Source: a virus
Direction: 5' to 3' (one strand)
Length of the DNA stretch: 4,631 nt
UHGV virus genome: UHGV-0038887
The position numbers and the translations under genes are program-made. Positions 63 through 4,582 of this stretch are shown here, piece by piece. Position 1 is the first letter of the stretch. Each line of letters opens with the position of its first letter. The notes under the pieces were generated by a model that made no database searches, was not told the DNA's origin, and was given only the letters and a program-made list of their open reading frames with translations.

Positions 63-90
63 GGTGCGCATAATGTAAAGTTATGTCAAA
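63..90 (+). other. dif-like Xer recombination site, left prophage junction (attL-like)
   Basis: GGTGCGCATAA-TGTAAAG-TTATGTCAAAA. The 11-nt XerC arm is identical to E. coli dif (GGTGCGCATAA, from memory). The spacer is 7 nt (TGTAAAG) instead of TGTATA, and the XerD-like arm matches TTATGTTAAAT at 9 of 11 when shifted by 1 nt (ungapped 20 of 28 overall). Confidence 0.75.
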
Positions 91-107: not shown

Positions 108-227
108 TTATAAACGGATACCGCCACGCATTGAGCGGGCTTTAAAGTTCTTCTTATGCGACTTCGCATACTTGCGGAACGAACGGCGGGAAGAACGCTT
201 AGACATACGTCTACGGGAACGAGCCAT
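108..227 (-). CDS. VP8: Small basic DNA-binding protein (VP8/ORF8-like, analogous to phiX174 J), 39 aa
   Basis: Hand translation of the reverse complement of 108-227 gives MARSRRRMSKRSSRRSFRKYAKSHKKNFKARSMRGGIRL then TAA; 17 of 39 residues are Arg or Lys. GGAGG lies 5 nt upstream of the ATG and overlaps the VP2 stop codon. Not in the supplied ORF track, presumably below its length cutoff. Confidence 0.75.
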   Translation of the reverse strand: MARSRRRMSKRSSRRSFRKYAKSHKKNFKARSMRGGIRL

Positions 228-229
228 AA

Positions 230-1000
230 TTACCTCCGATAATTGTTAATCAACTGCTGCTGGAACTGTGAAGGGGGGAAGCGTCCCCCCTTGTTTACTT
301 TCTTCGCCGAATTAGCCTCATGGTCACGCTTATAAGAACTAAGCCAAGTATTAAGCCCGCCGATAAGACCGCCAGAAGAAGCATCCATATTGACACGTGC
401 ACTTTCAGCTCCAACAGGTGTATTCAAATAATCAGCCAGAACCTTGTCCTGAACAGTCTGATATTGAGTTCTAATCCGCTGTGCAGAGCTAAGGCCTGTC
501 TGTGCTTCGATATTAGCTCTCCGACTTGCCTCGGTCAAAATCTGCTGATTGGTCAGATTAGACTGTGTTTTCATGTTCTCAACGTTCTGGAGAGCGGCAG
601 CAGCCTGTGCATCCTTAAGACGTACATCAGCCGCACTATTCGCAATCTGGTTACGCTGCAAAGCAATCTGTGACTCAATACCTTCCTTAGCAACCTGTTG
701 CTGTTGACGCTTCGTTAAGGCATCAAATGCAGCAACGGCAGAACTGACGGCACCAGAAAAATCAGCAGGCTGGGCAGCCTGAATACCTGACGAACTGACG
801 GAACCAAGACCACCGGAACCTGTAACGGCCAGAATCGGGTTAAGGCCAGCTTTCCGTAAATCCTGAACACGATACTGGATACCATTTTTGGCCAAATCCA
901 TCGTAATCTTATTGGCACGGTCAGCCGAAGATTTCGCGGAATGGGCACCAAGAAGAGCAGAACCAATAGCGCCAGCAGCGCCAGCAATTGCACTCCACAT
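230..1000 (-). CDS. VP2: Minor capsid / DNA pilot protein VP2
   Basis: 256-aa ORF directly downstream of the capsid gene. Gly/Ala-rich N-terminus (AIAGAAGAIGSALLGA), a Gln-rich central segment, and an RKAGLNP motif typical of gokushovirus VP2 as I recall it. AGGTGA Shine-Dalgarno 4-5 nt before the ATG. Confidence 0.85.
   Translation of the reverse strand: MWSAIAGAAGAIGSALLGAHSAKSSADRANKITMDLAKNGIQYRVQDLRKAGLNPILAVTGSGGLGSVSSSGIQAAQPADFSGAVSSAVAAFDALTKRQQQQVAKEGIESQIALQRNQIANSAADVRLKDAQAAAALQNVENMKTQSNLTNQQILTEASRRANIEAQTGLSSAQRIRTQYQTVQDKVLADYLNTPVGAESARVNMDASSGGLIGGLNTWLSSYKRDHEANSAKKVNKGGRFPPSQFQQQLINNYRR
271..292. repeat. GC-rich inverted repeat (AAGGGGGGA / TCCCCCCTT, 4-nt loop AGCG) inside the 3' end of VP2
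   Basis: Direct reading: 271-279 is the reverse complement of 284-292, giving a 9-bp stem with a G6/C6 core. It encodes the GGRFPPS segment of VP2, about 45 nt upstream of the VP8 start. Function unknown. Confidence 0.5.
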
Positions 1001-1013
1001 AATTTCACCTCAT

Positions 1014-1036
1014 AAAAAAAGGCCTCCGAAGAGGCC
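1014..1036 (-). terminator. Intrinsic-terminator-like hairpin between VP1 and VP2
   Basis: On the minus-strand transcript: GGCCUC-UUCG-GAGGCC (6-bp GC-rich stem, UUCG tetraloop; plus 1021-1036) followed immediately by U7 (plus A7 at 1014-1020). It sits 15 nt after the VP1 stop and just upstream of the VP2 ribosome-binding site. Confidence 0.6.
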
Positions 1037-1050
1037 AAATGACGAAACGA

Positions 1051-2763
1051 TTAAAAATGGTCAATAAGACCTGGTACAGAGTATACAGGCATGGGCCGCA
1101 CACACTTCAAGTCAAAGAACGCATCCATAATGAACTGGGGTTCGTCCTGTACAGCAAGAACGCGTTTCATCGGTGGATTCTCTTCAATGAATTCCTGATT
1201 CAGTGCAGGAAGAGAGTCGAACCGCTGGGCTAAATGCCACACATCGAGAGATTGCGGGTCTGTGGAACGTAATTTACCAGTAATCTGAGATGGTCGGTAG
1301 CGGTACTCTGCATAACGTTCCTGATAACCAAAAACTTCCTCATCCTTCTCGTTACCTTGTGCATAAATCTCCTTGTTAAAAACAGCCTGTTCGCCCAGAT
1401 GGGCCAGTGCAGGCCAGTAAAAATCAAAACGAGTCAGACGGGAAAACATACGCGGAATACCTTGCTGATAGGTCAAGTCGGCACGAACGCTGACAAGACC
1501 AATCACAAAACAATGCTCAACGAAGGAATGAGAGAAACCACGGTTTACACCTCCTGCAACGCCATAAGCGGCTAAGTTACCCTGTGGGGTGGAGTCGGTA
1601 GTAGCGGAGTTCTGGAGAACGGGGTTCACATTAATATCAAACGTACCAGAACCAAGATACTCGGGACGCTGTACACGGGCATCCGGCGAAATAACGCCAA
1701 AATGGGAGCGGATAATCTCAATATAACGAGTACCACCGCGAGCATCACGCTCAAGCAGCCGCTGAAGCTGGAACGCCTGACGAAGCGAATTGATTGTCAG
1801 ATTATCAACAACCTCACCGCCAGACTGCTTCAACTTAACGGGCGGATTTCTTTCATCAAATCCGGCAACCGCATAAGACAACGCACCTTCATCACCAATA
1901 GTAACAGGTGGAAACTTCCAATTACCTACACGATCCGTAGATAAATACATTTGAGAAGCCCCAATGTCATCATATGCAGAATTGGGCTGCGTACCCATAA
2001 CCAATTTATAGGGGTCGGAAAGACCAACAGAACCATTACCAGAAAAACCATAAGTCTTAAAGCCTAAACCACCTGGATAGCTGGGATATTCCAGACTGTA
2101 AGACGGTGGAACGCCAAGAGCAATCTCAACGCCTTCACCTTTCTGAGGCCATGGAAGGGCACTGGTGAAATAATCATGACGTTTTGCACGCTTACGCAAC
2201 GGAAAATTTGCAAGACCTGTTTCCGTCTCATCACCAAGCGGAAGCGGGGCGGAATTAATCAGGTTTTCATCACGATACCATTCGTTATAAATCAGGTTGT
2301 ACGCGCGAAACGGCAGAGCGCTCACACTGATACCTTCAATACCTGTGGGAACGCCAAAATAATCGGCAAGGGAACCTACAGGGAAACCGCCAGAAGGGGC
2401 TTTAATCTGCGGGATAAGATAATCCGTCGAATCACCAGGATTCTTCTGCTCACCGTTGAACTGTTGCCAGTGGTCCCAGACAAGACGATAGGGCACGGAA
2501 AAATACTGGATATCCAGGCGAAGGTTATCCATAAAAGGCACCACTGGCGTGGAGAGACGCGCCAGAATGGACGTCTTCAGATGGAACGTATCACCTGGTA
2601 AAGCCTCATCCAGAAACACGGGAATTAAATAACCTGCATCAAAAGAAGTTTTATAACCGGAACTGCGGTTAAAAACCGAACGCTGAATGTTGGCACTCGG
2701 GATAACTGAAAAATTATGCTGACTTTTTGAATTACTGGGCACTTTGCGACCAAATTTACTCAT
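1051..2763 (-). CDS. VP1: Major capsid protein VP1 (gokushovirus F-like)
   Basis: 570-aa ORF whose length and N-terminal region (…MDNLRLDIQYFSVPYRLVWDHWQQF…) match my recollection of gokushovirus VP1. Strong Shine-Dalgarno (GAGGGGGG) 3 nt before the ATG. Confidence 0.95.
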   Translation of the reverse strand: MSKFGRKVPSNSKSQHNFSVIPSANIQRSVFNRSSGYKTSFDAGYLIPVFLDEALPGDTFHLKTSILARLSTPVVPFMDNLRLDIQYFSVPYRLVWDHWQQFNGEQKNPGDSTDYLIPQIKAPSGGFPVGSLADYFGVPTGIEGISVSALPFRAYNLIYNEWYRDENLINSAPLPLGDETETGLANFPLRKRAKRHDYFTSALPWPQKGEGVEIALGVPPSYSLEYPSYPGGLGFKTYGFSGNGSVGLSDPYKLVMGTQPNSAYDDIGASQMYLSTDRVGNWKFPPVTIGDEGALSYAVAGFDERNPPVKLKQSGGEVVDNLTINSLRQAFQLQRLLERDARGGTRYIEIIRSHFGVISPDARVQRPEYLGSGTFDINVNPVLQNSATTDSTPQGNLAAYGVAGGVNRGFSHSFVEHCFVIGLVSVRADLTYQQGIPRMFSRLTRFDFYWPALAHLGEQAVFNKEIYAQGNEKDEEVFGYQERYAEYRYRPSQITGKLRSTDPQSLDVWHLAQRFDSLPALNQEFIEENPPMKRVLAVQDEPQFIMDAFFDLKCVRPMPVYSVPGLIDHF

Positions 2764-2813
2764 AAACCCCCCTCGGGAATCTGACTAAATTATAAACAAA
2801 CCACTGTATAAAC

Positions 2814-2900
2814 TGACACCTTTTTACAGGCTTCGTGGGAGCCGCCTGTAAGTTTCGGTGTCACCTGGCACAGTTACATCAAGTAGGACACTGTGCCAGG
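2814..2900. repeat. Tandem stem-loop module in the VP3-VP1 intergenic region
   Basis: Perfect 11-bp inverted repeat CCTGGCACAGT (2864-2874) / ACTGTGCCAGG (2890-2900) around a 15-nt loop. Immediately adjacent is an interrupted hairpin: TGACACC (2814-2820) pairs with GGTGTCA (2857-2863), and TTACAGG (2824-2830) pairs with CCTGTAA (2845-2851), around a 14-nt loop. No U-run follows on the coding strand. Confidence 0.6.
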
Positions 2901-2908
2901 CTGCAGGG

Positions 2909-3421
2909 TCAGGAGCCGTCTGCAGGTTTCGCGGGTTCAACACCCGCATCTGCTGAATTATTCACATCAGCACCGGAACGCTCCCGCGGGGACGCCGGAG
3001 CAGGACTCGACTCGCGAACGCTGACGCGTTCGGTCGCCGACTCCTCTCCGCCGCTCAATAATCCAAGCTCACGCGCTTTACTCCAGTTCTGCGGGTCACT
3101 CATCCACTCAACGTACTGCTTAACGTTGTTACCAAACATCGAGCGAATCGTGGACGGCAGGCTGTTAAAGTCGTCGTTAACGTCGTCAATTAAAGCCATT
3201 GCGTCCACATAATCAGTAATCGCAGAGGCATCGTAAAATTCACCACGCTGAGCACTGGTAAACACTGTCGTATCTCCCGTTCTTATCGCACGCTCAACAA
3301 TCTTGTTAACATCGCACTCATCGCGGAAATGCTGCTGGGTCATCGTAGGCTCTGTAAACTCGATGCCGGGCGACGGCGGCGGGTTATAACGGGTATGAAA
3401 CTTAGGCTTCGATGTACGCAT
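2909..3421 (-). CDS. VP3: Putative internal scaffolding protein (VP3-like); start uncertain
   Basis: ORF between VP5 and VP1 with an acidic, Ser/Pro-rich low-complexity C-terminus. The track ORF runs to 3511 (200 aa), but that first ATG has no Shine-Dalgarno and would overlap VP5 by 110 nt. The ATG at 3421 (MRTSKPKF…, 170 aa) has GGAG about 10 nt upstream and overlaps the VP5 stop by 20 nt. Assignment is by position and composition, not a recognised motif. Confidence 0.6.
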   Translation of the reverse strand: MRTSKPKFHTRYNPPPSPGIEFTEPTMTQQHFRDECDVNKIVERAIRTGDTTVFTSAQRGEFYDASAITDYVDAMALIDDVNDDFNSLPSTIRSMFGNNVKQYVEWMSDPQNWSKARELGLLSGGEESATERVSVRESSPAPASPRERSGADVNNSADAGVEPAKPADGS

Positions 3422-3671
3422 CTTCCATTTTCTCCAGGAACGCCGGACTGGCATCACAAACATAAACGCGGTCAATATCGACCGGAACCAGCTGCTGGTC
3501 CACAAAGTCATAAGCAGTCACACGGTGCAACGAAAAATCAACACGCTGCATACGATTACAGAACGCGTGCAGATTGCCTTTCGCAATACCATCATGCTGG
3601 GCCATAAACATAAAAACATCAGCATTAATCAGCTTGTCATGAATTACATAAACTGCATCAGAGTGAGCCAT
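3402..3671 (-). CDS. VP5: VP5-like small protein (proposed role in DNA synthesis/packaging, by analogy to phiX174 C)
   Basis: 89-aa ORF immediately downstream of VP4, with its start overlapping the VP4 stop by 14 nt and AGGAAG upstream of the ATG. Size and position match gokushovirus VP5. Confidence 0.7.
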   Translation of the reverse strand: MAHSDAVYVIHDKLINADVFMFMAQHDGIAKGNLHAFCNRMQRVDFSLHRVTAYDFVDQQLVPVDIDRVYVCDASPAFLEKMEDAYIEA

Positions 3672-4521
3672 CTTCTAACTTCCTCATCATTCGCTGGAAT
3701 TTAACCAGATTAAACTTATCCATATCCTGTAAGCGCCACGGGTCCAGTATATTTGCATTCAACTGGCGACACTCTTTATTCTGCTGCAACTTTTCCAAAT
3801 CACAGCCTGATAATAACTTGTCATAATAGCGGGGCGGTTTTATCTGACGACCACCACGACCAATACACGCATCTGAATTAACTATGTCATCGTAATATTC
3901 CATAAAAAAATCATAACCAATACCGGGTCTGTTACTCATGGCAGAAAACTCGGGGATACGGTCTCCGTAATGCTCCGAAGCACGGGAACCGGTGACTTTT
4001 TTAACACAGTATCGCGCCACGTAAGCAGCCGACTCAAAACTAAAAGCAGCAACAACAGACCAGCCAAAAGTCCAACATCTCTCAAGAAGCGAAGACCTAT
4101 ATAAATTAAATCTTCCAGCCTTGTGTAATGTCTTATCCGGAAAATCATAACCAAAAATAATCGCATGATAATGCGGTCGTTCTAATTTAGAACCATATTC
4201 ACCACAACCAAAAAATCGAATTGAAATATCATCAACAGCCAAAGACTTACGCAAACGCTTCATAAAATCAGTGAAATGTTTACGTACAAGAGAACCATTT
4301 TCAGGCAAATTCTCAGGGGAATAAGTCAGAGTGATAAAACAATTGTAATCATGCATGTGGGCTTCATGAACGCAACGGGTAGCCCAGTCACGAGAATGAG
4401 CAAGACGGCAACCGATGCACTGACCGCAGGGCAACTGGATGAATTTAGCGCCACGTGACGGCGTGAAAAAAATCTTTCCCGATGGCATCTGGTACGCGTT
4501 TAAAGGACGAGTACAAGCCAT
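3658..4521 (-). CDS. VP4: Replication initiation protein VP4 (HUH rolling-circle endonuclease)
   Basis: Rolling-circle Rep motifs: motif 1 CFITLTY, motif 2 HYHAIIFG (HUH), motif 3 YVARYCVKK with YxxxY catalytic tyrosines; also an N-terminal CGQCIGC cluster. Preferred start is the ATG at 4521 (MACTRPLNAY…, 287 aa), which has GGAGGTG 6 nt upstream. The track ORF start at 4563 (301 aa) has no Shine-Dalgarno and lies inside the dif XerC arm. Confidence 0.92.
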   Translation of the reverse strand: MACTRPLNAYQMPSGKIFFTPSRGAKFIQLPCGQCIGCRLAHSRDWATRCVHEAHMHDYNCFITLTYSPENLPENGSLVRKHFTDFMKRLRKSLAVDDISIRFFGCGEYGSKLERPHYHAIIFGYDFPDKTLHKAGRFNLYRSSLLERCWTFGWSVVAAFSFESAAYVARYCVKKVTGSRASEHYGDRIPEFSAMSNRPGIGYDFFMEYYDDIVNSDACIGRGGRQIKPPRYYDKLLSGCDLEKLQQNKECRQLNANILDPWRLQDMDKFNLVKFQRMMRKLEDGSL

Positions 4522-4554
4522 GACACACCTCCAGAAATCAAGGAGGCACCTCTT

Positions 4555-4582
4555 AGTGCGCATAATGTATATTATGTTAAAT
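4555..4582 (+). other. dif site (XerC/XerD), right prophage junction (attR-like)
   Basis: AGTGCGCATAA-TGTATA-TTATGTTAAAT matches E. coli dif (GGTGCGCATAATGTATATTATGTTAAAT, from memory) at 27 of 28 positions. The only mismatch is position 1 of the XerC arm. Same orientation as the left site. Confidence 0.85.

Follow-up and report, generated by a model that had tools for sequence, protein, structure and literature searches.

The 39-codon open reading frame (ORF) at 108..227 on the minus strand of the window (the whole 4,631-nucleotide stretch of viral DNA analysed here, UHGV-0038887) is almost certainly vp8 of an enterogokushovirus prophage at the E. coli dif site, probably doing the job that protein J does in phiX174. 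As judged from the sequences of its relatives, purifying selection acts on the translated peptide. Gene, name, position and virion location have all been published before, so the ORF adds nothing new to biology; its practical value is one of annotation, many metagenomic microvirus records omitting VP8. The features discussed below are as follows.

63..90, strand not assigned: phage-type dif-like site GGTGCGCATAATGTAAAGTTATGTCAAA, VP8-side end of the prophage (sequence)
108..227, minus strand: VP8 coding sequence, 39 codons plus TAA (ORF listing; EC6098 vp8 match; phrog_10695; pN/pS)
233..237, minus strand: Shine-Dalgarno GGAGG (sequence; conserved in 10/10 sequences)
230..1000, minus strand: VP2, DNA pilot (minor capsid) protein (phrog_8693 'pilot protein for DNA ejection', E = 9e-17; EC6098 vp2)
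1051..2763, minus strand: VP1, major capsid protein (Pfam Phage_F, E = 1.8e-180)
2909..3421, minus strand: VP3, internal scaffolding protein (Pfam Chlamy_scaf, E = 8.4e-34)
3402..3671, minus strand: VP5 (weak Pfam Phage_ORF5, E = 0.0014; length and position of EC6098 vp5)
3658..4563, minus strand: VP4, replication initiation protein (phrog_942, E = 1.5e-112; Pfam REP_ORF2-G2P)
4555..4582, strand not assigned: near-canonical bacterial dif that bounds the prophage on its VP4 side (a single mismatch to the E. coli consensus; chance expectation 0)

The basic frame and the prophage that carries it

The ORF begins with an ATG at 227-225 and ends with a TAA at 110-108 (ORF listing), exactly where the earlier note had placed an arginine-rich minus-strand frame of 39 aa. 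Its neighbours are also those described there: the VP2 stop (TAA 232-230), past which the VP8 ATG begins 2 nt later, and the left dif, which follows 17 nt after its end. The product, MARSRRRMSKRSSRRSFRKYAKSHKKNFKARSMRGGIRL, holds 11 Arg, 6 Lys and 1 His and no Asp or Glu, and with 17 Lys/Arg in 39 aa, a pI of 12.0 and a net charge of about +16.6 it is as extremely basic as had been claimed. Its length alone is not beyond chance, because 23 ATG-started ORFs of at least 39 aa were observed in the window against a mean of 15 in shuffles. As to composition, 0 of 300 shuffles yielded an ORF of VP8's length with at least 40% K+R, and VP8 is the sole ORF of such length in the window with that content. 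The window ORF falls in the size class of VP8/ORF8 proteins (about 35-47 aa, Arg/Lys-rich, with essentially no acidic residues). Reading it as a lysis or membrane peptide was rejected, there being no hydrophobic segment.

A PDB sequence search with the peptide returned one match, 8DES chain E ('Putative DNA binding protein', 39 aa), with 37/39 residues identical (95%, E = 2.3e-17). This chain is VP8 of EC6098 (MT185428, CDS 4355..4474, QIQ61034.1), a CDS of the same length starting 2 nt after vp2 and annotated as 'vp8, putative DNA binding protein'. The earlier note had called the gene unlisted: its absence from the ORF track is plausible, but the gene has been in print since 2020, and MT185428 carries its annotation.

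All identified phage genes of the window are on the minus strand, and between the two dif motifs the six genes run VP4-VP5-VP3-VP1-VP2-VP8, the six-gene set of enterogokushovirus prophages (PMC7062461). The proposal that the ORF completes the gokushovirus gene set is borne out, VP8 being the sixth gene, collinear with EC6098, and the others having Pfam/PHROGs identities. The dif arrangement likewise matches the published description (PMC7062461). The phage dif at 63-90 has a perfect XerC arm (GGTGCGCATAA) and a divergent spacer and XerD arm, and the identical motif occurs in the circular genome of Microvirus mar4; compared with canonical dif, the XerD arm is shifted by one base. In about 4,100 E. 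coli genomes the match is confined to the window's two ends (the empty site), and a collinear prophage adjoins hipA in seven complete E. coli genomes. Among phage records, Microvirus mar4 and Escherichia phage EC6098 (genus Enterogokushovirus) come closest to the window, with 87-88% identity.

Several parts of the prophage vary among these relatives or overlap in ways worth recording. The bacterial dif at 4555..4582 shares 9 nt with the start of the VP4 frame, an arrangement also seen in EC6098 (dif 1-28, vp4 from 21), and so places XerCD recombination inside the 5' end of the replication gene; PGAP calls a shorter VP4, of 864 nt, in the seven E. coli prophage genomes. At the other end, the spacer from the VP8 stop to the phage dif (91..107 of the window) is 17 nt long in the window, in E. 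coli C5 and in mar4. A longer spacer with a GATCGTAACGATC palindrome is found in prophage L004 (about 53 nt), the same type occurring in EC6098, L007, L008 and L009, and prophages L005 and L006 have a longer spacer too, with GATCGTGACGATC. The C-terminus of VP2 varies sharply (prophages L006 and L009 end in …PRR, not …NNYRR), which matches the variable region noted in PMC7062461, and a G6/C6 palindrome, AAGGGGGGAAGCGTCCCCCCTT, lies at 271..292 inside this variable part.

A further element, apart from VP8, is a hairpin of about 44 nt at 2857..2902, just 3' of VP3 and within the VP3-VP1 intergenic region (2764..2908). On the coding (minus) strand it reads CCTGGCACAGTGTCCTACTTGATGTAACTGTGCCAGG, with the parts CCTGGCACAGT-GTCCTACTTGATGTA-ACTGTGCCAGG, and its folding as ssDNA is significantly better than that of shuffled sequences (z = -3.9). 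Conserved matches to it, with 82-96% nucleotide identity, occur in 68 Microviridae records of very diverse origin that can otherwise hardly be aligned in their coding DNA; most of these matches fall in unannotated DNA immediately 3' of the scaffolding gene. The loop has ACTTGAT, the heptamer that spans the nick site of the phiX174 viral-strand origin, CAACTTG^ATATTAATAAC; the hairpin may plausibly be the VP4 nick site, the viral-strand origin of gokushoviruses. An Rfam scan of the whole window, hairpin included, gave no match, and we found no discussion of the VP3-VP1 hairpin in the literature searched on it.

Conservation, selection and family of the peptide

Syntenic regions were taken from nine relatives (seven E. 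coli prophages, EC6098 and Microvirus mar4). The earlier note had suggested looking there for the ORF and its Shine-Dalgarno, and had named a missing syntenic counterpart, or frameshifts or stops in homologous regions, as evidence against the gene. We found intact counterparts throughout: the ORF is ATG-started and 39 codons long in 9/9 relatives, and the Shine-Dalgarno is kept in each. The 8 distinct DNA sequences encode just 3 protein variants, differing at residues 23 (S/T) and 26 (K/R), and third codon positions hold 20 of the 25 variable nucleotide columns. In the VP8 frame the pN/pS, summed over every pair of sequences, is 0.07, compared with 2.4-7.5 in four of the five other frames; the remaining one, an antisense frame that shares third positions with VP8, has 0.16. 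Because of the third-position bias, the pN/pS of 0.07 and the Shine-Dalgarno conserved in relatives, we regard the VP8 ORF as a selected gene.

These data bear on two other readings of the region. In one, the frame is open by chance in the spacer between VP2 and dif, and the constraint is on the DNA, e.g., as a recombination accessory sequence, and not on a protein. ORFs of at least 39 codons are indeed common in the window (23 against about 15 in shuffles), and PGAP leaves this one uncalled in seven genomes. Yet a constraint on DNA would hardly place 20/25 substituted columns at third positions with a pN/pS of 0.07, or keep the ATG, the stop and the Shine-Dalgarno in all relatives; homologous proteins occur in distant gokushoviruses without dif sites, a near-identical EC6098 peptide is present in a solved virion structure, and no shuffle produced a comparably basic ORF. 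We take the chance-ORF reading to be already effectively refuted and give it practically no weight. The other places the selected product on the plus strand, in the antisense frame across 112..249, which is open in all relatives (stop-free in 8/8 distinct sequences) and whose pN/pS of 0.16 is low. Such a value is expected as a by-product of the third positions shared with VP8, and the sense frame has both the lower pN/pS (0.07 vs 0.16) and the fewer protein variants (3 vs 5). Besides, the one start codon that the antisense frame offers in the window is a TTG at 172, with no Shine-Dalgarno comparable to that of VP8, every identified phage gene is on the minus strand, and microviruses transcribe one strand. 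We therefore hold a plus-strand product to be just as remote, and treat the ORF as the minus-strand gene vp8 in what follows.

The window VP8 matches phrog_10695 (E = 7.6e-10, residues 3-39 of 39), as does ORF8 of Chlamydia phage Chp2 (E = 5.8e-19), so a profile comparison with Microviridae ORF8/VP8, which the earlier note had recommended, puts the two in one family; BLASTP aligns their C-terminal parts. PHROGs labels phrog_10695 as 'unknown function', and a Pfam search with the VP8 ORF gave no matching model. A phmmer search of a protein collection, in which a 39-aa query has little power, returned 3 representatives at E <= 0.001, the yield being low because the query is short, the library huge and short ORFs rarely predicted. 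When phages were searched by tblastn, residues 19-39 alone were aligned, the low-complexity filter masking the Arg-rich N-terminus.

We aligned 10 sequences: the window, EC6098 VP8, the three database representatives, four ORFs from distant microvirus records, and Chp2 ORF8. The residues M1, R5, F17, H24, N27 and R34 G35 G36 I37 R38 are invariant, and the last residue, after RGGIR, is L or F (C-terminal motif RGGIR[L/F]); relatives of VP8 span 37-47 aa. On the circular map, every aligned genome has the VP8 gene as the immediate upstream neighbour of VP4. The window order VP2-VP8-dif … dif-VP4 brings VP8 next to VP4 after circularisation, as in EC6098 and Chifec UA13_19, and the order is VP3-[VP8]-VP4 in Chp2 and in Ciona-associated microviruses. 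One distant gokushovirus record annotates the syntenic ORF as 'DNA binding protein'.

Annotation of the gene is otherwise patchy. That short-ORF filters would miss it, as the earlier note expected, agrees with what we found: 39 aa is below the ORF lister's default cut-off of 60 aa, and PGAP has no CDS for VP8 in 7/7 RefSeq E. coli prophage copies. Tblastn matched eight phage records that are more distantly related, six of which have no matching annotation at that place, and in an exact look-up in a collection of 15 billion proteins neither the window VP8 nor EC6098 VP8 was present. The label of vp8 is 'nonstructural protein' in RefSeq NC_048874 vs 'putative DNA binding protein' in GenBank MT185428, and the former is a mislabel. 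Pipelines that drop ORFs under about 40-60 aa would systematically report gokushoviruses without a DNA-packaging protein.

Expression and role in the virion

On the coding strand the VP2/VP8 junction reads …TAT CGG AGG TAA TT ATG, the last two VP2 codons making a GGAGG at 237-233, 5 nt 5' of the VP8 ATG. GGAGG is kept 4-5 nt 5' of the ATG in all 10 sequences (the window and the nine relatives). It is retained also in two prophages with an unrelated VP2 C-terminus, and it is still there in mar4, in which VP8 follows another small ORF and the junction reads …GGA GGT TAA T ATG. The strong Shine-Dalgarno reported in the earlier note, set against the VP2 stop, was thus present in every copy examined. 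Reading VP8 as a read-through extension of VP2 was rejected; the frame is open past the VP2 stop in some relatives, but not with a 1-nt gap.

The small ORF of mar4 (MZ089750, 2533..2631) is an extra one between VP2 and VP8, with its own Shine-Dalgarno and a hydrophobic product of 32 aa, MFSRLLTPVLLALDSLYVAVDAIVKIVRSFGG; its last codons recreate the GGAGG-TAA-N-ATG junction before VP8. It has no PHROG family match and is absent from the window and the E. coli prophages, and it is conceivable that it encodes a small membrane or lysis-type peptide.

Transcription of vp8 probably runs on from vp2, because we saw no terminator-like site between these two genes, whereas the gap between vp1 and vp2 has a GC hairpin and a T-run. 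This terminator-like hairpin, GGCCTCTTCGGAGGCC followed by T7, lies at 1036-1021 on the minus strand, past the VP1 stop (1051) and ahead of the VP2 start (1000). Intergenic terminators attenuate transcription in phiX174, and by analogy the hairpin at 1021..1036 could attenuate transcription into VP2 and VP8.

From the junction we infer that translation of VP8 may be helped by that of VP2: ribosomes ending VP2 could re-initiate at VP8, and free ribosomes could also load at the GGAGG. Strict coupling is doubtful on stoichiometry and unlikely to be the whole story. In phiX174, a virion holds about one J-type protein for each capsid subunit (60 copies), as against about 10-12 pilot proteins. If this stoichiometry holds, VP8 is needed in excess over VP2, and independent initiation at the strong Shine-Dalgarno is therefore implied; the site probably recruits ribosomes independently of VP2 as well.

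Mietzsch et al. (Viruses 2024, PMC11281519) describe VP8 as a polypeptide rich in Arg and Lys that is the analogue of phiX174 J. It was observed inside the SpV4 and EC6098 capsids, with its C-terminal tail on the VP1 inner face and its basic N-terminal part toward the genome; in phiEC6098 VP8 the C-terminal 10 residues are ordered, and the C-termini of VP8/J-type proteins fill the same buried capsid-protein pocket (PMC11281519). Small J/VP8 DNA-binding proteins are a general feature of the family (PMC3091885). Given its 95% identity to the EC6098 protein, the window VP8 would also lie on the inner capsid surface. The same identity, to a chain in a virion cryo-EM entry (8DES), lends support by analogy to the earlier reading of the ORF as a packaged DNA-condensing protein.

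The charge of the peptide and the analogy with phiX174 J suggest that VP8 binds ssDNA and that packaging depends on it. Its Arg/Lys/Ser-rich N-terminal two thirds would bind and neutralise the ssDNA genome as it enters the procapsid, and the C-terminal tail (…MRGGIRL) would dock on the VP1 inner face and so tether the DNA to the shell. VP8 would thereby guide the ssDNA in packaging and then stay in the virion.

It is very unlikely, in our judgement, that the peptide, instead of being packaged to condense DNA, is a non-structural nucleic-acid-binding factor, e.g., one that regulates replication or gene expression. The label 'nonstructural protein' on vp8 in NC_048874 and on Chp2 ORF8 would speak for such a factor, as would an older view that gokushovirus virions had just two identified structural proteins (PMC3091885). 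Cryo-EM of EC6098 (PDB 8DES chain E) and SpV4, however, puts VP8 on the capsid interior, and the invariant C-terminal RGGIR[L/F] fits a capsid-docking anchor. Since VP8 is the prophage-terminal gene beside the phage dif, it might bind replicative or excised DNA and so have a second, non-structural role, in XerCD recombination, pseudolysogeny or superinfection immunity. We think the chance slim that it has such a role, or that its expression is set by an unusual mix of re-initiation and independent initiation where the conserved Shine-Dalgarno, the stop and the start meet; the evidence gathered holds no positive sign of either. A DNA-binding protein packaged in the virion remains the reading that we prefer.

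Comparison with known systems

The closest known counterpart of the window VP8 is that of EC6098. Common to the two are the length of 39 aa, the 2-nt gap after vp2, the GGAGG site and the position as last gene before the phage dif. The proteins differ by two conservative substitutions, S23T and K26R, and the spacer from the VP8 stop to dif is 17 nt in the window against about 53 nt in EC6098-like prophages.

Chp2 ORF8 shares with the window VP8 an N-terminal Arg-rich run, the F, H and N residues, and the MRGGIR[L/F] end, with about 51% identity over aligned positions. It is longer (44 aa), and it comes after VP3 rather than VP2, because the gene order differs. The RefSeq record of SpV4 has one annotated CDS, and the Spiroplasma genetic code differs. 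SpV4 VP8 is described as small and Arg/Lys-rich, with its C-terminus in a hydrophobic VP1 pocket and its N-terminus toward the DNA; it has 11 basic residues vs 16 in EC6098, and it is ordered over aa 9-38 vs the last 10 aa in EC6098 (PMC11281519).

Protein J of phiX174, MSKGKKRSGARPGRPQPLRGTKGKRKGARLWYVGGQQF, is a member of Pfam PF04726 Microvir_J (E = 1.7e-16) and of phrog_2354 'DNA condensation'. The search for homology to J that the earlier note had suggested came out negative by Pfam, BLASTP and PHROG: the window VP8 has no Microvir_J match at Pfam E <= 1 and no BLASTP alignment with J at E <= 100, and the two proteins fall in different PHROGs (phrog_10695 vs phrog_2354). Because neither a Microvir_J nor a BLASTP match was found, we regard VP8 as a functional analogue of J that stands outside the J family; had J been the only target searched, the result would have been falsely negative. 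The J gene sits between D/E and F, unlike that of VP8. Like VP8, J is short (38 aa) and strongly basic in its N-terminal part, with a brief C-terminal tail that is not basic and has a hydrophobic last residue, and it is a DNA-packaging protein that stays in the virion.
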